This document shows positions 2,122 through 18,632 of a stretch of DNA of 64,000 bases, in pieces. The notes below the pieces were generated by a model. It searched no databases, was not told the DNA's origin, and saw only the letters and a program-made list of their open reading frames with translations. Origin of the DNA: Candidatus Latescibacterota bacterium (GTDB lineage: Bacteria; Latescibacterota; UBA2968; UBA8231). The stretch spans positions 576,001 through 640,000 of the forward strand of contig OZ220090.1 in assembly GCA_964291625.2 (NCBI GenBank), in the 5' to 3' direction. The translations under genes were made by a program, and so were the position numbers. Numbering within the stretch: the first letter of the stretch is position 1; each line of letters begins with the position of its first letter.

Positions 2122-3615
2122 ATGAACGCTGAGTTCAACATTATCGAAGCCTTGGGCCAGATCGCGCGTGAGAAGAACGTGGACCGCGAGATGGTCATCC
2201 AGACCCTGGCCGACGCCCTCGTCTCGGCTGCCAAGAGGCGCTACGGCAACGTCGACAACTTCGAGGTCCAGACCGATCCGGGGAGTGGCCGCATGCGGGT
2301 GGTGGCCCGCAAGACCGTCGTGGAGGAGGTGAACGTCCCCGAGCTCGAAATCGAAATCGGGGAGGCCCGCCAGATCGATCACCAGGCCCAGATCGGCTCG
2401 GTGGTCTTCGAAGAGTTGAACCTGGCCGACTTCGGCCGCAACGCCATCCAGACGGCCAAGCAGATCCTGATCCAGCGCGTGCGCGAGGCCGAGCGCGAGC
2501 ACATCTACGAGGAGTTCGCCAGCCGCATCGGCAAGATCGAGTCCGGCACGGTGCAGCAGATCAGCCACGGCGACATCATCATGAATCTCGGGCGCGCCGA
2601 AGCCGCCGTGCCCCTCAAGGAGCAGATCCGCCGCGAACGCTATCGCCAAGGCGACACGGTGCGCGGCTACATCTTCGAGATCCTCAAGTCCAGCCGAGGC
2701 CCCCAGGTATTGCTCTCCCGGACCCATCCCGAATTCCTGCGCAAGCTGTTCTCCCTCGAGGTCCCGGAGATCGCCGAAGGGATCGTGACCATCCACGCCG
2801 TGGCTCGGGAGCCAGGAGAGCGGGCCAAGATCGCGGTGAGTTCCAACGACGACCGGGTCGACCCGGTCGGTGCCTGCGTCGGCGTCAAAGGTTCGAGGGT
2901 ACAGGCGATCGTCCGTGAGCTCTCCGGAGAGCGGATCGACATCGTCCCCTGGATCGACGAGGCCGACATCTTCATCTCCCGGGCCCTGGGCCCGGCCACG
3001 GTATCGCGGGTGATCACCGACGGCCGCCGCCATCATGCCCAGGTGATCGTCGAGGAAGAGCAGCTCTCCCTCGCCATCGGCAAGTCCGGACAGAACTCCC
3101 GGCTCGCTGTTCAGCTCACGGGCTGGGGCCTGGACATCATCACCGACGAGGAGTATCAGCGGCGCCTCCGCAGGTTGGAGGAAAGCAAAGTGGAGTTGCG
3201 CCGCCTGGAAGGCGTCAGCGAGCTCATCTCCCTCAGCCTGGCGACATCGGGCTTCATCTCCATCCGGGGCATCGCCCAGGCCGAGGTCGACATGCTGCGC
3301 ACCGTCCCCGGCCTGGAGGGGGAGGGGGAAGCGGCGCGACTGAAGGAACTGGCCGTCGCTTATGTCGAACAGGCGGAGGCCTCCGGCGAGGAGCTCAGGC
3401 CGGCCACGCTCGAGGAGCTTGAGGCCGCCGAGAGAGCCGCCGCCGAGGCCCGGGCGGCCCAGTTGGCCCGCGCCCATGAAGAGGAGGCCGAAGGCGGTGC
3501 TGCGCTCGCGGAGGAACCGGGCGGCGAGGGCGTAGAGGGGAGCGGAAGCGAAGCTGTGAGCGCAGCCCCCGGGGAGCCCGAGGCCCCCACCACGCGCCCC
3601 TTCGAAACCAGCTGA
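2122..3615 (+). CDS. nusA: Transcription termination/antitermination factor NusA with C-terminal HhH-like region and acidic tail
   Basis: FGRNAIQTAKQ, AREPGERAKIAV, DPVGACVG, LAIGKSGQN; start set at ATG 2122 after GGAG. Confidence 0.97.
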   Translation: MNAEFNIIEALGQIAREKNVDREMVIQTLADALVSAAKRRYGNVDNFEVQTDPGSGRMRVVARKTVVEEVNVPELEIEIGEARQIDHQAQIGSVVFEELNLADFGRNAIQTAKQILIQRVREAEREHIYEEFASRIGKIESGTVQQISHGDIIMNLGRAEAAVPLKEQIRRERYRQGDTVRGYIFEILKSSRGPQVLLSRTHPEFLRKLFSLEVPEIAEGIVTIHAVAREPGERAKIAVSSNDDRVDPVGACVGVKGSRVQAIVRELSGERIDIVPWIDEADIFISRALGPATVSRVITDGRRHHAQVIVEEEQLSLAIGKSGQNSRLAVQLTGWGLDIITDEEYQRRLRRLEESKVELRRLEGVSELISLSLATSGFISIRGIAQAEVDMLRTVPGLEGEGEAARLKELAVAYVEQAEASGEELRPATLEELEAAERAAAEARAAQLARAHEEEAEGGAALAEEPGGEGVEGSGSEAVSAAPGEPEAPTTRPFETS

Positions 3616-3641
3616 CCGGGTAAGCGGATCGAGGAGCTCTC

Positions 3642-6047
3642 TTGGAAAAACGCCGGGTATATCAGGTAGCGAAGGAGAAGAAGCTCTCCAGCGATGCCCT
3701 CATCTCCATGTTGAAGGGGATGGGGCAGGACGTGAAGAGCCACATGAGTGTGGTAACTCCCGAGATGCTGGAGGCGATCACCAGGAAGATCGACGAGGAG
3801 AAGCAGTCCTCGATCGAGGAGGTGCAGCGGCAGAAGGTCAAGGAGTCCCAGCGCAAGGCCGAGGCCCGAGCCGCGCGCCAGCCCACGGATGCCAAAGAGG
3901 AGAGCAAGCCGCGGGACGGCCGCCCCACCGGCCGCCGGCCCGACCCGGCCCCGCGCCCCGGGATGTCCCCCCCGGCGCCCGAGCGCCCCGACGATGGCCG
4001 TCGCCGCAAGCGGCGTGGCGGCAAGGTCGACGAGGAGATGCTCAACGAGCTGCGCGAGACCCACACCGCGGATCGGCCGGCCGAGAAGGCCCCCGCCAGT
4101 TCCGACGTCAGCGGTCGTTGGCGGGCGGGCGGGGGCCGCCAGAGGCGCCGCAAGCAGGTCGATTCGCAGGCGGTCCAGGAGAGCGTCCGCAAGACCCTGA
4201 GCCAGATCAGCGAAGGACGCACGCGCCGGCGATACGACCGCTCGCGCGACGAGGGGGGCGAGGAGGAGTCGCAGGAGACCCAGGTCCTCCACATCAACGA
4301 GTTCGCCACCGTCGGTGAGTTGGCAGAGGCCCTGCACGTCCGGCCGGCGGAGGTGATCGCCGTCTGCCTGCACCTGGGCGTGGTCGTGACGATCAACCAG
4401 CGCCTCGACATGGACACCATGGTCACCGTGGCCGACGAGTTCGGGTACGAAGTCAAGCGTCTCGAGTCAGCCGAGGATGAAGAGGCGGAAGACTTTGGGG
4501 ACGACGATCTGGCCGACGAAGGAGATGTGGGAGAGCCGGCTCCTCGGCCGCCCGTGGTCACCGTCATGGGACACGTGGACCACGGCAAGACATCCTTGCT
4601 CGACTACCTGCGCAAGACCAACGTCGTCAAGGGCGAGTCCGGGGGCATCACCCAGCACATCGGCGCCTACTCCGTCCGGGTCCCCGAGGGGCGGTCGATC
4701 ACCTTCCTCGATACTCCCGGACACGCCGCCTTCACCGCCATGAGGGCCCGCGGAGCCCGCATCACGGACCTGGTCATTCTCATCGTCGCCGCCGACGACA
4801 GCGTCATGCCCCAGACGATCGAGGCGATCGATCACGCCCGGGCGGCCCAGGTTCCGATCGTCGTGGCCATCAACAAGATCGATCTGCCCACCGCCGACCC
4901 GGAGCGCATCAAGCGCGAGCTGGCCGAGCACAGCGTCCTCGTCGAAGGGTGGGGGGGGCAGGTCTCCTGCGCCGAGGTCTCTGCCACTACCGGCGCGGGG
5001 ATCGAGCAGCTCCTCGAAGCGGTTCTGCTCGAGTCCGAGGTTCTGGAGCTGAAGGCCTTTCCGGAGAAACGGGCCCGCGGCACGGTCGTCGAAGGTCAGC
5101 TCGACCGGGGACGAGGCGCCGTGGCGACCGTTCTCATCGAGGATGGCACCCTGAGCCAGGGCGATCCCTTTGTCACGGGCATGTACGGGGGCCGCGTACG
5201 GGCCCTGATGGATGAGCAGAATGCCCGCCTCAAGTCGGCGGGCCCCGGGCAACCGGTCCAGGTCCTGGGGCTGGGCGGGGTCCCCCAGGCGGGCGAGGTA
5301 TTCACCGTCGTCCCCTCGGAACGCGATGCCAAGGCCATCGTCACCAGGCGCCAGCAGATCAAGCGGGAACAGGACGCCCGCAGGAGAAGCCTGACCCTCG
5401 GCGACCTGCAGCACCAGATCCAGGAAGGCCGCATCAAGGACCTCAACGTCGTGGTCAAGGGAGATGTGGACGGTTCGGTGGAGGCGATCACCCAGGAGCT
5501 GGGCGGCATCACCCACGAGGAGGTGCGCATCGCCGTCATCCACGCTGCCGTCGGCCCGGTATCGGACAACGACGTGATGCTGGCCTCCGCCTCTGGGGCG
5601 GTGATCATCGCCTTCCACGTGACCATCGAGAGTTCCGCCTCGGCCATGGCCGAGGAGAACGGCGTCGAGATCCGCGAGTACAGCGTCATCTACGAGGTCG
5701 TGGAAGAGTTGAGAGCCGCCCTCGCCGGCCTCCTCGCCCCGAGCCTCGAGGAGCGCATCATCGGCACCGTCGAGGTGCGCCAGTTGTTCTCCTCCTCCCG
5801 GGCCGGCAACATCGCCGGGTGCTACGTGCAGGACGGCCGGATCGCCCGCAGCAGCGCGGTGCGGCTGCGCCGCGAGGAAGAGATCGTCTGGGAGGGCCGG
5901 ATCGCTTCGCTGCGCCGGTTCAAGGACGACGTGCGTGAGGTGCTCGAGGGGTTCGAGTGCGGGATCTCCCTGGAGGGACACAACGATGTCCGCGAGGGAG
6001 ACCTGATCGAAGCGGTCGACGTCGTCGAGACCGTGCGGACCCTGTAG
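3642..6047 (+). CDS. infB: Translation initiation factor IF-2
   Basis: [32 protein letters not shown]; TTG start after GAGGAG. Confidence 0.98.
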
Positions 6048-11944: not shown

Positions 11945-14878
11945 ATGGCAAAGACGGCTGACCACTCCGGCTCGGCGGGATCGTACGACTTCCGGCGCAT
12001 CGAGAAGCGCTGGCGGGAGCACTGGATCGCCGAGGGCACCTACCGCACCGCCGGCCCGGGAGAGGAGGGCTACGACCCGGAGCAGCCGCGGTGCTACATC
12101 CTCGACATGTTCCCCTATCCCAGCGGCGACGGCCTGCACATCGGCCACCCGAAGGGATACATCGCCTCCGACATCTACAGCCGCTTCAAGCGCATGGCGG
12201 GATACAACGTCCTCCATCCCATGGGGTTCGACAGTTTCGGACTCCCCGCCGAGCAGTATGCCATCGAGCACAATGTCCATCCCGCAGTCTCCACCGATCA
12301 GTGCGTCGACCGCATCCGCGCCCAGCTCCAGTACCTGGGCCTCGGCTACGACTGGGACCGGGAGATCTCCACCTCCCACGAGGACTACTACCGCTGGACC
12401 CAGTGGATCTTCCTACAGCTCTTCGACAGCTGGTACGACCCGGACCTGGAGTGGCGCGACGACTCGGGGCGGTCGATCCGCGGGCGGACCCGTCCCATCT
12501 CCGAGCTCGTGGACTCCTTCGGGAGGGGAGAGCGGCGGCTCACGGGCCAGGACCGGCGGTCCCTGGAAGGAAGTCCGGTGGAGGCCGGGTGGCAGGAGCT
12601 GTCGGAGGCGCAGCGCCAGGCGGTGCTGAACAACTACCGCATGGCGTACCAGAAGGAAGTCACCGTCAACTGGTGCCCCGGCCTCGGCACGGTCCTGGCC
12701 AACGAGGAGGTCACCCCCGAGGGACGCAGCGAGATCGGCGACCACGCGGTGTACAAGCGGCCCCTGAAGCAGTGGATGCTGCGCATCACCGCCTTTGCCG
12801 ACCGGCTCCTGGAAGACCTCGAGGCAGGGGCCCTGCCCGACGGCCGCGGCGGCACCTATGCCCTGGACTGGCCGGACTCGATCAAGCTCATGCAGCGCAA
12901 CTGGATCGGCCGCAGCGAGGGCGCCGAGGTCCGCTTCGACGTGGTCGACGCCTCAGGTTGCACCGGCTCCAGCCTGGAGGTGTTCACCACCCGGCCCGAC
13001 ACGCTCTTCGGAGCCACCTTCATGGTCGTGGCGCCCCAGCACCCCCTGTTGTCGGAGGGAGACCAGGTTCCGGAGGCCTGGCCATCGGATACACCCGACG
13101 ACTGGAAGGGGGAGCCGGGAGCCTCCTCGCCCAGGGAGGCCGTGTCCCACTACGCGGCCCGGGCGGCTCGCTCCACCTTCTCGGTGGCCGGGCAGGATCA
13201 GGAGAAGAGCGGGGTCTTCACGGGGATCTTCGCACGCCGTCCGATGGACGGCCAGCGCATCCCGGTCTTCACCGCCGACTATGTGAGCATGGACTACGGC
13301 ACCGGAGCGATCATGGCCGTCCCCGCCCACGACGACCGGGACCATGCCTTCGCCCACAAGTACGGAATCCCGGTCGTCGAGGTCGTCGAGCCGCCCCCGG
13401 AGGCAGCCGGCACGTTCCCCTACACGGGGGATGGAAGGTCGATCAACTCTCCCGGCGGGGGGGGGGCCGGGAATCCGCCGAGGGACAGCCCGTATGCGAT
13501 CTCGGGTCTGGCCACGGCCGAGGCGAAATCGCGCATGGTCGACGCCCTGGAAGCGGCGGGCGTGGGCCGAAGGGCGGTCACCTGCCGCCTGCGTGACTGG
13601 GTGTTCTCGCGCCAGCGCTATTGGGGAGAGCCGTTCCCCCTGGCCACCCATCCAGACGGCTACACGGTGACTACCGGCCTGCCCGTGGTCCTCCCCGAAC
13701 GAGAGGACTTCCGGCCCAGTACCTCGGACGATCCCGACACCCCGGTCACTCCGCCCCTCGGGCGGGCGGGCAGAGAGTGGACCCAGGTGGAGGTGGGGGG
13801 CGCCCTCTGCGACCGCGAGCTCAACGTCATGCCCCAGTGGGCGGGATCGTGCTGGTACTTCCTGCGCTTCATCGATCCCCACAACGACGGAGCCTTCTGC
13901 GATCCGGAGAAGGAAAGGAGCTTCATGCCCGTCGATCTCTACATCGGCGGCGCCGAGCACGCGGTGCTCCACCTGCTCTACGCCAGGTTCTGGCACAAGG
14001 CGCTCTTCGACCTGGGGCACGTGAGCTCGCCGGAGCCCTTCAAGAAGCAGTTCAGCCAGGGCATGGTCACCGCCGACGCCTTCACCGACGACCGGGGAGT
14101 GTACATCGACATCCGCCAGGTCGCTTTCGACGCCGAGGGCGAGCCCATTCACGCGCAGACCGGGCAGCGGCTGTCGAGACAACGGGGGAAGATGGGGAAG
14201 CGCTACAAGAACGGGCTGCCCCCGGAGGAGGTAGGGGAGGAGTTCGGCGTCGATACGCTGCGGCTGTACGAGATGTACATGGGGCCCCTGGAGCAGAGCG
14301 CCCCGTGGAGCATGGAGGGGATCCGCGGCATGCAGCGGGTCCTGCAGCGGATCTGGAGAAACCTCGTCGCCCAGGACGGGACCGCAAAGATCGACGATGG
14401 CGACGCCCCGGAGGATCTGCGAAGGCTGCTCCACCGGACCATTCAACGGATCACCGCCGACTTCGAGGGATTGCGTTTCAACACCGCCATCGCCGCCCTC
14501 ATCGAGCTGAACAACGAGTTGGTCCCTCTCCAGAGAGTCCCCGCCGAGGTGGCTCGGGCGCTGGTCCTCCTCCTGCACCCACTGGCCCCTCATCTGGCGG
14601 AAGAGTTGTGGCAGCGTTGTGGCTTCGGATCCGGGGATCTCTCCGGCCAACCCTGGCCCGAATTCGACGAAGCCCTGACCCACCGGGAGACGATCCTCCT
14701 TCCGGTGCAGGTCAACGGCAAGGTCCGCGCCACGATCGAGGTGGCTGCTTCGACCTCCGAGGAGGAGGTGAGGAAGCACATCCTCGGCCTGGACAACATC
14801 CAGCGATACCTGCCCGACTCCGGTGAGATCAAGCGCCTGATTCTCGTTCCGGGCAGGATCGTGAACATTGTCGTCTGA
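11945..14878 (+). CDS. leuS: Leucine--tRNA ligase
   Basis: DMFPYPSG.GLHIGH, FTTRPDTLFGATF, GTGAIMAVPAHD, RDWVFSRQRYWGEP, KMGKR variant of KMSKS. Confidence 0.97.
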   Translation: MAKTADHSGSAGSYDFRRIEKRWREHWIAEGTYRTAGPGEEGYDPEQPRCYILDMFPYPSGDGLHIGHPKGYIASDIYSRFKRMAGYNVLHPMGFDSFGLPAEQYAIEHNVHPAVSTDQCVDRIRAQLQYLGLGYDWDREISTSHEDYYRWTQWIFLQLFDSWYDPDLEWRDDSGRSIRGRTRPISELVDSFGRGERRLTGQDRRSLEGSPVEAGWQELSEAQRQAVLNNYRMAYQKEVTVNWCPGLGTVLANEEVTPEGRSEIGDHAVYKRPLKQWMLRITAFADRLLEDLEAGALPDGRGGTYALDWPDSIKLMQRNWIGRSEGAEVRFDVVDASGCTGSSLEVFTTRPDTLFGATFMVVAPQHPLLSEGDQVPEAWPSDTPDDWKGEPGASSPREAVSHYAARAARSTFSVAGQDQEKSGVFTGIFARRPMDGQRIPVFTADYVSMDYGTGAIMAVPAHDDRDHAFAHKYGIPVVEVVEPPPEAAGTFPYTGDGRSINSPGGGGAGNPPRDSPYAISGLATAEAKSRMVDALEAAGVGRRAVTCRLRDWVFSRQRYWGEPFPLATHPDGYTVTTGLPVVLPEREDFRPSTSDDPDTPVTPPLGRAGREWTQVEVGGALCDRELNVMPQWAGSCWYFLRFIDPHNDGAFCDPEKERSFMPVDLYIGGAEHAVLHLLYARFWHKALFDLGHVSSPEPFKKQFSQGMVTADAFTDDRGVYIDIRQVAFDAEGEPIHAQTGQRLSRQRGKMGKRYKNGLPPEEVGEEFGVDTLRLYEMYMGPLEQSAPWSMEGIRGMQRVLQRIWRNLVAQDGTAKIDDGDAPEDLRRLLHRTIQRITADFEGLRFNTAIAALIELNNELVPLQRVPAEVARALVLLLHPLAPHLAEELWQRCGFGSGDLSGQPWPEFDEALTHRETILLPVQVNGKVRATIEVAASTSEEEVRKHILGLDNIQRYLPDSGEIKRLILVPGRIVNIVV

Positions 14879-14982
14879 GGACGTTCAGAAAGGCGCAGAT
14901 CTGGGTCGGGGATCGAAGGGCGCTTCCGGGTGCCCCATTGTTCACCCCCAAGGGACGCCAACCGCCTGTTCTCTTCAGGGCA

Positions 14983-15010
14983 TAGTTACGTAACGTGTAT
15001 TATACGACAT
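14983..15010 (-). promoter_or_regulatory. dif-like tyrosine recombinase site 1
   Basis: Minus strand ATGTCGTATAA-TACACG-TTACGTAACTA (11-6-11), just downstream of the recombinase stop. Confidence 0.7.
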
Positions 15011-15042
15011 CACAGCAGTCGCCCCACACGAGCAGGGGGACA

Positions 15043-15996
15043 TCACCGGATGTGGATGTAGTCCGAAGCATTGTCAGTCAGCCGTTCCCGATTCTCGTAG
15101 TACCGCATGGTGGTCTTGAGGTCTTTGTGGCGCAGGTGGGCCTGGACCTGCTGGGGCTTGGCGCCGCCCTCGATCGACAGCGTGCAGCAGGTGTGGCGGA
15201 ACATGTGAGCGGTTACGTTTCGAGTCACGCCGGCCCGGCGGGCATGCTTGCGCACGATGGCGTTGATCGATTGATCCGAGATCCCCTTTCCGCGGGACCG
15301 GTTGCGGGCCAGGGAGATGAAGGCATGTCCCACCACCGGAAAGCCCCCCAGTTCGAGGGCCTGGCGGTAGAGCTCCAGATAGTGCAGGACAATGGGCTGC
15401 AGCTTCACGTCCTGGGGAACCCCGGACTTCGTCTCCGTCAGGCGGAGGAGGTGAAAGGCGCCCTCCTCGCTCAAGTCCGTCCATCTCACGTTGGCCACCT
15501 CGGACCGCCGAAGGCCGGCAAAGGTCAGGAGGTGTAGAATCGCCAGATCCCGGGCGCGAATCAGCGGGTTCTCCTCTTCATCGACAATATCAATAATTCT
15601 CTGTAATTCATTTCGAGTCAGTGCCTTACCGCTCACCGTCTCATCCAGTCGATAGCCGCGCACGAGGGAGGCGTCCGCTGGGTTTCTTTCGATGAGGCCC
15701 GTCGCCGCCATCATGCGGAAGAACGCCTTCAGGCTGGCCAGCTTGCGGTTGATCGTCGACCGCTTGCGGCCGCGGGCGGCCAGCGCGTTCCGGAAGTCGA
15801 TGATGTCGGCGAAGGTCACTGCGGCCACTCTCTTGGGAGTGATGCCGCCGCTGCCGAAAAACTCCCGGAGGTCCGCGCAATAGGCCCGGCGGGTGCGCTC
15901 CGTCAGCTGGCCCGACAGGAAGCGCTCCAGTGGGTCCCCGGAGATGGCCCGGGCAGGATATCCCGAAGGCGGGGCGGGCGTGATTTCGGTGCTCAT
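15043..15996 (-). CDS. Xer-like tyrosine recombinase/integrase (317 aa)
   Basis: N-terminal core-binding domain (TRRAY..DL, STINRKLASLKAFF, NPA); catalytic set GLRRSE (R), TKSG (K), HMFRH, LRH, TTMRY (Y); start set at ATG 15996. Confidence 0.95.
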   Translation of the reverse strand: MSTEITPAPPSGYPARAISGDPLERFLSGQLTERTRRAYCADLREFFGSGGITPKRVAAVTFADIIDFRNALAARGRKRSTINRKLASLKAFFRMMAATGLIERNPADASLVRGYRLDETVSGKALTRNELQRIIDIVDEEENPLIRARDLAILHLLTFAGLRRSEVANVRWTDLSEEGAFHLLRLTETKSGVPQDVKLQPIVLHYLELYRQALELGGFPVVGHAFISLARNRSRGKGISDQSINAIVRKHARRAGVTRNVTAHMFRHTCCTLSIEGGAKPQQVQAHLRHKDLKTTMRYYENRERLTDNASDYIHIR

Positions 15997-16002
15997 GGGC
16001 CC

Positions 16003-16008
16003 AATATA
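16003..16008 (-). promoter_or_regulatory. Putative -10 element for leaderless recombinase mRNA
   Basis: TATATT lies 6 nt upstream of the ATG; no Shine-Dalgarno visible. Confidence 0.45.
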
Positions 16009-16087
16009 CCCAGCTGGCCCGGATCTGTCATTGCTGCGTTTGCCACGGGCACAGGCGTCCTTCCCGGGCCAGCTCAGCCTGCACGTA

Positions 16088-16115
16088 ATCATTGATAATG
16101 ACGGTTATCGTTGGT
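16088..16115 (-). promoter_or_regulatory. dif-like tyrosine recombinase site 2
   Basis: Minus strand ACCAACGATAA-CCGTCA-TTATCAATGAT; GATAA/TTATC inverted arms around a 6-bp spacer. Confidence 0.6.
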
Positions 16116-16198
16116 TTGGATTCCAGGCCAGTTCTCCGAGCCCGGTTCGCCCGGGCCCTGCAACCCCCCACTCCTCACTTGGCTCGCCTCAAGAGTCT

Positions 16199-16226
16199 GT
16201 GATACATAATGCAGATTATACGTCCT
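16199..16226 (-). promoter_or_regulatory. dif-like tyrosine recombinase site 3
   Basis: Minus strand AGGACGTATAA-TCTGCA-TTATGTATCAC; arms match site 1 at 9/11 and 7/11. Confidence 0.7.
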
Positions 16227-16260
16227 GTACACCTCCGGGGCAGAACGCCCTCTTGGAGTT

Positions 16261-18051
16261 TCACGTCCGGTGGAAGAGCCGATCGAGCTCGTGGAGAAGG
16301 ATCTTGATCAGGATCGGCCGGCCGTGAGGACAGGCGAAGGGCTCGCGCGCGTTGAGTAGTTTGCGGACCAGCGACTCCATCTCCGGGATGGAGAGCCTCT
16401 CGCCGGCGCGGATCGAAGTGTGGCAGGCCATCGATGCGGCGACGGCGTCCCGTGCCTCCGGTCGCACATCCAGCTCCTCGATCAGGTCGGACAGGATCTC
16501 GTGGAACAGGTCTCCGTCACCCCAGTGACGCAGCCCAGGCGGGATGGCATCGATCAAGAGACTCGCGGGACCGAACTCGCGCACGCCGAATCCCAGTCTC
16601 TCGAACAGCTCACGGGCCTGGAGAAAGGCCTCCATCTCCACGGGGCTGACCGTGACTGTCAGGGGCACCAACAGCTGCTGAGAGGCCCCACCTTCCGCTT
16701 CGAGAGCGTCCTGCACCTCCTCGAAGCGGACCCGCTCGTGGGCCACGTGCTGATCGACGACGAGGAGTCCGTCACGGATGGGGATCAGCAGGTACTTGTC
16801 GTGGATCTGCCAGGATATGGTGGAGCGCCGCGCCTCTCCCAGGGTCTGGCGGCCCACGGCGTCTGCCGACACCGGCTCCCCGGGGACGGGGGCCGCTGGC
16901 AGGAGGGTCAGTCTCATCTGATCCGCCGCCCCATCCCACGGCTCTGGCTCGGCGACATAGCCGCTCCCGCTCTCGGCCAAACCCTCGACCGCCGTCTCCG
17001 CGGCCGGCGCCGCCTCGTCGGCCGCGCCTGACGGATAGGAGTAGGTCTGCGCCTCGGGGACCTTCAGGGCATCTCGCACCGCCTTCTGCACCAGCTGCCG
17101 CAACTCCGGCTCCCGGGAGAAGCGCACCTCCCGCTTCGTCGGATGGACGTTGACGTCGAGATGGCGGGGATCCAGGTCCAGCCACAGGACGAACTCGGGA
17201 TGGCCGTTGTGGGGCAGCAGCGAGCCGTACCCGTTGTAGACGGCGGTGGCAAGGGGGCGGCATGTGATGGGGCGCTGCCGGACGACGACGTACTGCCTGG
17301 AACGGGCCCGCCCGCAATCTCCCGGCGGTTTCAGGAATCCCTCGACCCGCGCCTCCGCTCCACCGACTTCCGCCTCCCCCTGAACGGCCAGGAGCCTCCC
17401 GGCCTCGAGGCGGAGCAGCTCCGCCGCTCGCAGGCCCCGCTCCCCCGGGGGCAGGTCGAGGATCTGCCGGCCTCCCTGATCGAGGCGGAAGGAGACCTCC
17501 GGCCGGGCGGCGGCCAGGGCCACGACGGCCTGGGTCACATGCCGCAGCTCCGTGTCCCGGTGGCGCATGAACTTCCTCCGAGCGGGGGTGTTGTAGAACA
17601 GACCGCGGATCTCGATGGTGGTGCCCACGTCTCGCCCCACGGGCAGTAGTTCGCGCTGCACTCCGCCTTCGACGACGAGACGCGTGCCCTCGTCGCCCCC
17701 GGCGGGACGGCTCTCCACGGTCAGTCGGGAGACGGCGGCGATGCTGGCCAGGGCCTCTCCCCGAAACCCCATGGTGGAGATGGTGAACAGGTCCGTGGGC
17801 GTTCGCATCTTGCTGGTGGCGTGGCGCTCGGTGCAGAGCTCCACGTCCTCCCGAGACATGCCCAGACCGTTGTCGGCGACGTGAATCCCCTGGAGGCCCG
17901 CCTCCTCGATCTCGATCCCTATGCGGCTGGCCCCGGCGTCGAGGGCGTTCTCCACCAGCTCCTTGACCGCCGATGCGGGCCGTTCGATCACCTCCCCGGC
18001 GGCGATCTTGAGCACCAAGCTCTGGGGCAACCGCTGGATGCTCGCGCCCAT
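16261..18051 (-). CDS. mutL: DNA mismatch repair endonuclease MutL
   Basis: IAAGEVIERPASAVKELVENALDAGA, GFRGEALASI, DVNVHPTKREV, DQHVAHER, CPHGRP. Confidence 0.97.
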   Translation of the reverse strand: MGASIQRLPQSLVLKIAAGEVIERPASAVKELVENALDAGASRIGIEIEEAGLQGIHVADNGLGMSREDVELCTERHATSKMRTPTDLFTISTMGFRGEALASIAAVSRLTVESRPAGGDEGTRLVVEGGVQRELLPVGRDVGTTIEIRGLFYNTPARRKFMRHRDTELRHVTQAVVALAAARPEVSFRLDQGGRQILDLPPGERGLRAAELLRLEAGRLLAVQGEAEVGGAEARVEGFLKPPGDCGRARSRQYVVVRQRPITCRPLATAVYNGYGSLLPHNGHPEFVLWLDLDPRHLDVNVHPTKREVRFSREPELRQLVQKAVRDALKVPEAQTYSYPSGAADEAAPAAETAVEGLAESGSGYVAEPEPWDGAADQMRLTLLPAAPVPGEPVSADAVGRQTLGEARRSTISWQIHDKYLLIPIRDGLLVVDQHVAHERVRFEEVQDALEAEGGASQQLLVPLTVTVSPVEMEAFLQARELFERLGFGVREFGPASLLIDAIPPGLRHWGDGDLFHEILSDLIEELDVRPEARDAVAASMACHTSIRAGERLSIPEMESLVRKLLNAREPFACPHGRPILIKILLHELDRLFHRT

Positions 18052-18053
18052 CG

Positions 18054-18632
18054 CTACAGCTCCGGGGCGATCTCGGAGACGCGGCGCTCGTACTCCTCCT
18101 GGGTCATGCGCCCCTCCTCCAGGTCCTTGCGGGCCCGGGCCAGGCGCTCCCGGGGACTGCCGATCCGCCGGTGCATCCGGGCCTGCTGCACCAAGTTGTA
18201 CAGTCCGAAGAGGAGGAGGCCGCCGATGGCGGCCATCCAGGCCGACTCGCGCCACCAGCGTCCGCGGTCGGTGCCCACGGACAGGGCCACCCCGGAGGCC
18301 CGCCACCGGGCGAGGGCCTCGATCACCACAGCCTCGTCCGGCATCGGCACGATGATGTCCTTCGTCAGGGACCGGTGGCCCTCCTCCTCGATGACCACCG
18401 GTTGACGCAGCCGGCCGATGAGCCTGCCCTCCACCACCTCGATCCTCTCGATCATGTCCTGGGACACCAGCTCCTCCAGGCGCTCCGGACGGATGGCGGT
18501 CTCGGAGGGTGCCAGCAGGCTCAGCAGCAGGAGCAGGCTGATCAGTCCCAGGGCCAGAATCAGGGCGAGGGCCGTGGCCGAGGGTCCCTGGCTCGTCCCG
18601 AAGCTCTCCCTGGTCTCGTCGTGGGTTGTCAC
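18054..18632 (-). CDS. Two-TM membrane protein with FtsH-extracellular-like loop and C-terminal SHOCT-like motif
   Basis: Hydrophobic helices at both ends of the loop; C-terminal LEEGRMTQEEYERRV; tightly packed with neighbours. Confidence 0.6.
   Translation of the reverse strand: MTTHDETRESFGTSQGPSATALALILALGLISLLLLLSLLAPSETAIRPERLEELVSQDMIERIEVVEGRLIGRLRQPVVIEEEGHRSLTKDIIVPMPDEAVVIEALARWRASGVALSVGTDRGRWWRESAWMAAIGGLLLFGLYNLVQQARMHRRIGSPRERLARARKDLEEGRMTQEEYERRVSEIAPEL

Follow-up and report, generated by a model that had tools for sequence, protein, structure and literature searches.

What does a Xer-like recombinase gene surrounded by three dif-like sites do in a chromosome that also encodes other Xer proteins? 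The question is raised by a locus in the window, by which we mean the whole 64,000-nucleotide stretch of DNA analysed here (Candidatus Latescibacterota bacterium, assembly GCA_964291625.2, contig OZ220090.1, positions 576,001 to 640,000), where the gene lies between leuS and mutL and is accompanied by three 28-bp sites, S1, S2 and S3. An earlier note on this DNA had proposed either a single-recombinase, multi-site dimer-resolution locus or a minimal self-flanked recombinase cassette at dif. We consider it most likely, with a probability of roughly one half, that the locus holds a recombinase-plus-site dimer-resolution module nested in an old dif locus. Two layers would then be superimposed. 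The first would consist of S1 and S3, stemming from an ordinary XerC/XerD dif site of the kind that sister families carry alone at the terminus, and the second would be a self-contained, family-wide module made up of a single-copy, divergent Xer-like gene and its own palindromic site, S2, just upstream.

The three sites were confirmed at positions 14983–15010 (S1), 16088–16115 (S2) and 16199–16226 (S3), reading on the minus strand as quoted in the earlier note, and all of them have the dif-type layout of two inverted arms of about 11 bp around a 6-bp spacer (11-6-11). S1, located 33 bp past the recombinase stop codon, and S3, which sits between mutL and S2, are XerCD-type dif-like sites in direct orientation on the minus strand; counted by hand, they agree at 9/11 and 7/11 arm positions and differ in their spacers, again as previously described. 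S2 and S3 lie 92 bp and 203 bp before the likely recombinase start, respectively. Such sequences are rare in the host genome (5.9 Mb, 70% G+C). TAA-N6-TTA occurs at 13 places, three of which are S1, S2 and S3, ATAA-N6-TTAT occurs at five, two of them at the locus, and S3 is the sole ATAA-N6-TTATGT in the genome. Scanning with the 13-position pattern of the canonical dif core returned scores of at least 11/13 at three of about 11.8 million positions, and two of these three are S1 and S3, the latter with 11/13. The clustering of sites at this locus is far beyond chance.

The open reading frame of the recombinase gene extends from 15043 to 16092 on the minus strand, and ATG 15996 is the start that agrees with the orthologues, which yields a protein of 317 amino acids (15043–15996). 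This third Xer-like recombinase of the genome matches PF00589 with 86 bits (cut-off 27.1) and carries an N-terminal SAM-like domain. Residues R163, K190, H264, R267, H290 and Y299/Y300 are invariant in 14 orthologues, over which the last 60 residues are nearly identical, and the list of open reading frames and Pfam revealed no coding content besides this gene in the leuS-mutL interval, in agreement with the intact R-K-HxxR-H-Y set and the lack of cargo described before. When the Xer class was assigned by the scores of NCBIfam models, the protein stayed far below the cut-offs for XerD (TIGR02225; 116.2 bits, cut-off 329.6), XerC (TIGR02224; 114.9 bits, cut-off 335.15), archaeal XerA (NF040815; 107.7 bits, cut-off 220) and XerS (NF003462; 65.8 bits, cut-off 267). 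An alignment profile matched the XerH structure over the catalytic half alone (E 2.6e-11), more weakly than it matched XerD or XerA, and the closest solved sequences and folds (XerD, XerA, Tn1549 Int, XerH, lambda Int and Cre) include none that is close. The AlphaFold model (pLDDT 74.6, with a poor C-terminal stretch of 40 residues) showed a generic tyrosine-recombinase fold in Foldseek, with XerA entries at the top and XerH and XerD lower, while relatives in a collection of 5.8 billion proteins bear generic names or automatic 'XerC' or 'XerD' labels. Judged by the curated models, the enzyme is thus Xer-like, yet none of XerC, XerD, XerS and XerA.

To interpret the counts given here and below, it should be kept in mind that all genomes compared are metagenome-assembled genomes (MAGs) of an uncultured lineage, including the host (95% complete, 6.6% contamination), and that related genomes and loci are kin and hence not independent. 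The records of the related loci belong to Gemmatimonadota, and many of these MAGs are labelled 'Latescibacterota'; judging by record titles and by the labels of sequencing runs sharing part of the sequence, the host lineage is marine and often sponge-associated. The recombinase gene is present as a single copy in 60 of the 76 family genomes. The 16 without a match are mostly incomplete assemblies, but they include the complete genome G007 and all three genomes of genus g17, and the gene is absent from the 12 genomes searched of two sister families. Its neighbours are conserved, with leuS found by tblastn in 50/58 and mutL in 51/58 related loci, and its identity declines with taxonomic distance. 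The gene looks vertically inherited.

The earlier note had treated the three sites as one class, a view that we had to abandon, as S1 and S3 resemble the dif of the sister family and S2 is a separate, palindromic site. S2 has a Xer-type core and the family pattern ACT-N4-ATAA-N6-TTAT-N4-AGT, and it is presumed to be the cognate site of the adjacent recombinase. Among the 59 loci compared (58 relatives plus the window, one fragmentary locus, L071, having been dropped), the pattern was found upstream of the recombinase gene in 53 under a strict score, and degenerate forms could be recognised by eye in three more (L052, L059 and L075). The upstream sequence available for L025 was 126 bp long, and no S2 form was seen in the upstream sequence of L061 or L065. 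In the 53 sites, the two arms match each other at 11/11 positions in 15 cases, at 10/11 in 14, at 9/11 in 17 and at 8/11 in seven. The spacer is CAGGCA or its complement in 30/53 loci, in either orientation relative to the gene. The recombinase gene is thus linked to its own putative site, at 92 bp in the window and at a median of 156 bp in the 53 loci, and a fixed operator is made less likely by the overall spread of this distance, between 64 and 2502 bp. A matrix built from the S2 sites of 52 relatives scored the host S2 at 31.2 bits and the next-best place in the genome at 3.8 bits, making S2 unique in the host genome. Its pairing with the gene is therefore supported by position (53/59 loci), by uniqueness in the host, by the conserved spacer and by the ATAA-N6-TTAT core, which is typical of Xer sites.

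S1 and S3, by comparison with related loci, are drifted descendants of an ordinary XerC/XerD dif site. In the sister family f2, which belongs to the same class and carries the recombinase gene in 0/9 genomes, the two genomes examined have one canonical XerCD-type dif-like site each, at 0.49–0.50 of the circle from dnaA, with neither leuS nor mutL within 2 kb of it. Across the loci of the host family, canonical-like sites occur in twos or threes at the terminus. Compared with S1 and S3, those of other genera are a much better fit to the XerD-type arm, and relatives carry a site at the S1 position too, mostly in the opposite orientation. Among close species of the window's genus, the outer arm positions of S1 and S3 vary, and in a strain with about 93% identical genes the S1 region is replaced by 121 unalignable nucleotides.

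The earlier note had placed the locus at dif, and its chromosomal position bears this out. In 19/19 complete relatives, whose genomes range from 4.2 to 7.3 Mb, the orthologous locus lies at 0.467–0.498 of the circle from dnaA, that is, its relative position is constant across a 3-Mb span of genome size (the 19 genomes being kin and not independent trials). In the host genome, dnaA is located at C1:2531901 and the locus at 0.48 or 0.47, depending on the orientation of C2 and assuming that the two contigs form one circle. The cumulative GC skew of C2 goes up to about 320 kb, is flat to about 620 kb and then goes down, with the locus at 591 kb. Given the distance of about half a circle from dnaA and the turn in the GC skew, we place the locus at the replication terminus, the expected location of dif. 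FtsK with its gamma domain is encoded in the host genome as well.

To which extent the recombinase is alone depends on the scale considered. It is alone in the locus, as the earlier note had it, but the genome contains four PF00589 matches and the gene is not its sole Xer. A XerD-like gene has the full catalytic set and reaches 300.3 bits, just under the TIGR02225 equivalog cut-off of 329.6, and is above the cut-off of subfamily PRK00283 (299.3 against 279). Just after topA lies a XerC orthologue (L103:568-1536; G000 C1, about 4123367-4124335, minus strand), an open frame of 322 amino acids that has kept its N-terminal half and, aligned with the intact f2 proteins, has lost the first histidine, the second histidine and the tyrosine. 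The fourth match, at C1 77407-77658 (L104, L157), is a fragment of 84 amino acids with 67% identity to the Cre-like recombinase family described below. With an intact XerD and a persisting XerC orthologue, even if the latter lacks its histidines and tyrosine, the proposal of a single-recombinase system does not hold. We read the catalytic state of XerC from alignments across the family, counting genomes present under two handles once (G017=G032, G011=G047, G060=G046). The tyrosine is missing in 13/32 orthologues, namely 5/5 in the host genus plus members of genera g3, g6, g7, g8, g17 and g18, and is kept in 19/32, comprising 16/16 in g20 plus g4, g16 and g9; in f2, XerC is intact in 2/2 genomes. 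Because the catalytic loss holds in 13 of the 32 family genomes examined, the XerC orthologue has the appearance of a conserved pseudo-enzyme, not of a dead gene.

In other lineages, a comparison of the leuS-mutL slot indicates that the module has been replaced by a Cre-like one. The complete genome G007, of the same genus as the host, has no orthologue of the recombinase. Its slot, at 0.49 from dnaA, contains three canonical-like sites and a different tyrosine recombinase, for which Cre is the best relative among solved structures (E 2e-19), and 29 bp upstream of this Cre-like gene lies a palindrome with the same 11-6-11 layout and different inner arm bases. The same arrangement occupies the same slot in 3/3 genomes of genus g17. 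In the two of these with dnaA and the locus on one contig, the slot is at 0.47 from dnaA (calculated with rounded genome sizes), and the XerC orthologues of both lack the catalytic residues. The Cre-like family has a patchy distribution (16/76 genomes); in g17 it is multi-copy and reaches up to 15 matches. We also considered that this family might always bring its palindrome along, which was ruled out, as the G007/g17-type palindrome was found beside 0/11 non-terminus copies, one of which has an unrelated palindrome.

The loss of XerC catalysis in lineages carrying a terminus module, the drift of S1 and S3 in the host genus and the swap for an unrelated recombinase with its own palindrome fit a module that would be selected for at the terminus and able to work without XerC catalysis. 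We infer that S2 is the recombination site of the enzyme and that the reaction resolves dimers. In a chromosome dimer, the recombinase would assemble as a homo-tetramer on the two sister S2 sites, and strand exchange would take place in the 6-bp spacer, as in XerS/difSL, XerH/difH, XerL/dif or Cre/loxP. With one S2 per chromosome, the sister copy in the dimer would be the sole available partner, and the exchange would resolve the dimer. The extra recombinase probably helps in chromosome-dimer unlinking or has taken it over. Given the loss of the histidines and tyrosine of XerC in the host genus and the drift of S1 and S3, dimer resolution there probably depends largely or wholly on the S2 module. 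A broader proposal, which we put forward tentatively and with more doubt than confidence, is that this Gemmatimonadota family runs a second, autonomous dimer-resolution system atop XerCD-dif at one and the same place, and that the redundancy let XerC decay to a non-catalytic protein in several genera and the module be swapped for a Cre-like one.

Several observations weigh against a dedicated dimer-resolution module at S2. What links the enzyme to S2 is adjacency and co-conservation, and the arms of the host S2 agree at 8/11 positions. XerD is intact in the host genome, canonical-like sites persist beside the recombinase gene in 55/59 loci, and in genus g20 the module is found together with a XerC whose catalytic residues are intact (16/16 genomes), so that it cannot simply be a XerC replacement. 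With a promoter-like site about 57 bp downstream of it, S2 could also serve as an operator. In 10/19 complete relatives, the S2-like pattern recurs at one to four extra places (0 for a reversed-pattern control), and 0/14 of these palindromes that were fetched have a tyrosine recombinase within 3 kb; S2 could hence be one member of a broader class of hairpins or of sites bound by proteins. Finally, the sequencing runs were covered as assembled contigs, which cannot show rare recombination products.

Some of these points are brought together in the main rival explanation, according to which the recombinase would be the catalytic partner of XerD on S1/S3-type sites, replacing the dead XerC, and S2 would be an autoregulatory operator. 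This would account for a XerC without histidines and tyrosine in the host, and without the tyrosine in 13/32 family genomes, in the presence of an intact XerD, as well as for the canonical-like sites that hug the gene and for the location of S2 upstream of the promoter-like site. It is harder to reconcile with the g20 genomes, all 16 of which have the module along with an intact XerC. Moreover, apart from ATAA, the arms of S2 have little in common with the XerC-side arms of S1/S3-type sites, an operator would not need the conserved S2 spacer, and a distance to the gene of anything between 64 and 2502 bp is unexpected for such an element. We regard this explanation as unlikely, though it survives better than the others.

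A poorer fit, and an improbable one, is the second proposal of the earlier note, a minimal mobile cassette at dif, excisable, flanked by duplicated S1/S3 and akin to an IMEX or pdif module. Direct repeats do surround the gene in the window, a sister species and one genus have a Cre-like recombinase in the same slot, and the Cre-like family reaches up to 15 matches in some genomes. The self-flanked layout is, however, peculiar to the host genus. In a script tally, canonical-like sites flank the gene on both sides in 32 loci, with the pair inverted in 29 and direct in three, namely the window, its congener L022 and L035, the last of which has a downstream site that reaches 13/13 in the inverted sense as well. 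The spacers of the pair are identical in 6/32 cases. The window's genus is exceptional in that S1 and S3 are direct, enclose the gene and S2 alone and differ in their spacers, a difference that should block their exchange. The gene is, in addition, single-copy in all 60 carriers, leuS (50/58) and mutL (51/58) stay with it, and its identity drops with taxonomic distance. A 2456-nt contig from the sequencing run that contains this DNA spans positions 14702–17157 without any difference and represents the occupied form alone, and neither an S1/S3 junction nor an empty site was present in the assembled contigs, a weak indication that does not bear on rare excision. Single copy and conserved synteny speak against a mobile dif-flanked cassette, even if the content of the slot has been replaced in G007 and g17. 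A candidate joint from 14677 to 16394 in run X3 proved spurious, as it comprises 22 letters at less than 95% likeness and ends inside leuS and mutL.

Similarly improbable is that the enzyme acts mainly as a DNA invertase or multi-site recombinase on inverted pairs of dif-like or S2-like sites. Inversions have left traces at these loci. In genus g20, an inverted pair of canonical-like sites encloses mutL, S2 and the recombinase gene (about 3.5 kb), and the side of the segment on which leuS lies is the same in most loci and switched in eight. In 4/4 genome pairs, the sequence beyond one site in the first genome corresponds, in reverse, to that beyond the other site in the second, and since these matches start within a few bases of the canonical-like sites, the alignments indicate that the segment has flipped at those sites during evolution. 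The presence of the 3.5-kb segment in both orientations, with breakpoints at inverted sites, would suit an invertase, as would the inverted pairs of S2-like 28-mers, about 130 bp apart, that occur in several genomes. However, the sites that flank the g20 segment are of the XerC/XerD type and both of these enzymes are intact in g20, such that XerCD can explain the flips. In the host, S1 and S3 are direct and S2 lacks a second copy to pair with, and the inverted S2-like pairs are collinear in all five genomes compared. As a separate observation, g20 loci (L042, L044, L046, L048, L049 and L053) possess a third canonical dif-like site beyond leuS, about 2.95 kb downstream of the recombinase gene, with the spacer GGATAA or similar and a XerD-type arm resembling that of the f2 dif. 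Two directly oriented dif-like sites thus bracket leuS as well in this genus.

The recurrence of S2-like palindromes indicates that something recognises S2-family palindromes at other places in relatives and that the S2 family is not always single-site; the S2 matrix scan detected no such extra places or pairs in the host genome. That the extra palindromes might mark other recombinase genes was ruled out, given 0/14 within 3 kb. One recurrent palindrome, which is conserved, follows at about 14 bp from the stop codon a gene whose product is secreted, comprises about 300 amino acids and has no Pfam family (L169:3001-3028, also L159, L163, L166, L167, L168 and L170), far from the terminus and with no recombinase nearby. 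Genome G036 has two copies of an element (L162:3001-3186 and L161:3001-3187) in which identical, inverted S2-like 28-mers surround about 130 bp with a TTGACA-like box inside, upstream of a gene for a leucine-rich-repeat (LRR) surface protein. Elements of this type are found 170–180 kb from S2 in three complete relatives (G043, G048 and G038) and occur in two more genomes. We considered these pairs as a working flip switch and rejected the idea, as the five collinear genomes include no flipped form. In G043, the same S2-like 28-mer, including the spacer, is present at C1 1987960-1987987 and 2789142-2789169, inverted and 801 kb apart, and in G032 (L164) a gene for an IS110-family transposase (3463-4488) lies 435 bp from an extra S2-like palindrome (3001-3028).

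When folded as RNA, S2 reaches -4 kcal/mol (z 0.72), no better than shuffled sequence, which rules out a stable RNA hairpin in the host. The least probable explanation, that S2 has no part in recombination and is a palindrome with a structural or regulatory function, either as a binding site for a transcription factor or as a hairpin in RNA or DNA, can draw on the occurrence of the same palindrome family after unrelated genes in 10/19 relatives and on arm changes that are often symmetric (11/11 in 15 and 10/11 in 14 of the 53 sites), but it has against it this unremarkable fold, a common S2 variant with two mismatches midway in the would-be stem, the lack of a terminator-like site and of any Rfam match (E up to 1) at the locus, and an ATAA-N6-TTAT core, that of Xer sites, right beside a Xer-like gene.

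Regarding the surroundings of the module, both flanking genes were identified by Pfam matches. The leuS gene (11945–14878, plus strand) is a conserved neighbour, and mutL (16261–18306, minus strand) is the gene that lies inside the invertible segment in g20. The promoter-like site mentioned above (16003–16031, minus strand; ATGACA, 17 nt, TATATT) is a consensus match alone, one being found against a mean of 0.3 in shuffled sequences. It is the only such match in the region and ends 7 nt before ATG 15996, which is why the recombinase mRNA may be leaderless.

If the proposed dimer-resolution module is real, its significance would lie in the evolution of chromosome unlinking. The exchange of one unlinking system for another has so far been known from end states alone, namely XerCD, XerS, XerH, XerL and XerA. 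The family studied here would provide a natural series of intermediates in such a replacement, with both systems at the terminus, a XerC without catalytic tyrosine in 13/32 genomes and an extra recombinase that has itself been swapped. The pair formed by a 317-amino-acid enzyme and a 28-bp site is compact and amenable to a plasmid assay. At a practical level, the annotation labels 'XerC' and 'XerD' on these genes are unreliable.

How does this arrangement compare with known systems? The XerS/difSL system of streptococci and lactococci, XerH/difH of Helicobacter and Campylobacter, XerL/dif of Legionellales and archaeal XerA/dif likewise consist of one Xer-like tyrosine recombinase and a terminus site with near-symmetric arms. 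The XerS gene is reported to be genetically linked to its site (PMC2731167), and the XerL report indicates that single-recombinase systems are still being discovered (PMC9765430). In contrast to these systems, the host keeps an intact XerD and a XerC orthologue, and canonical dif-like sites lie within 150 bp of S2; furthermore, its protein falls far short of the cut-offs of the XerS (66 against 267) and XerA (108 against 220) models. With the XerC/XerD-dif system of most bacteria, the locus shares the 11-6-11 layout and XerD-type arm of S1/S3 and of their better-kept counterparts, the place opposite dnaA and the presence of XerD and of the FtsK gamma domain in the host. It differs from that system in having more than one such site per terminus, in an inverted pair, usual among the relatives, that has flipped the intervening DNA, in the loss of the XerC catalytic residues in the host genus and in the third recombinase gene between the sites. 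In one survey, a canonical dif was predicted for the one Gemmatimonadetes genome then available (PMC3025954).

The same survey mentions XerS beside XerCD in Lactobacillus helveticus as a possible evolutionary intermediate (PMC3025954). That case resembles ours in having two dimer-resolution systems per genome and an extra recombinase gene near the skew switch point, but it concerns a single strain, for which no XerS site was found (PMC3025954). In the family described here, the coexistence extends to 60/76 genomes and is accompanied by a conserved site and by repeated loss of XerC catalytic residues.

Outside the chromosomal Xer systems, the P1 plasmid prophage resolves its dimers via Cre/loxP, in which a recombinase gene likewise lies beside one palindromic site with an asymmetric spacer, and Cre is, among solved structures, the best relative of the slot occupant of G007 and g17 (E 2e-19). 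The site studied here is, however, chromosomal, at the terminus and 11-6-11 rather than lox-sized, and the enzyme of the window is Xer-like. DNA bracketed by dif-like sites is also a feature of IMEX elements and pdif modules, and the flanks of pdif modules are inverted, as they are in most relatives here. IMEX elements, by contrast, lack a recombinase of their own, whereas the unit described here encodes one and is single-copy, chromosomal and apparently vertically inherited. In the literature that we searched, with subscription journals and supplements outside its scope, single-recombinase systems and a third recombinase beside dif were represented by the known systems alone, and no description of this module was found.

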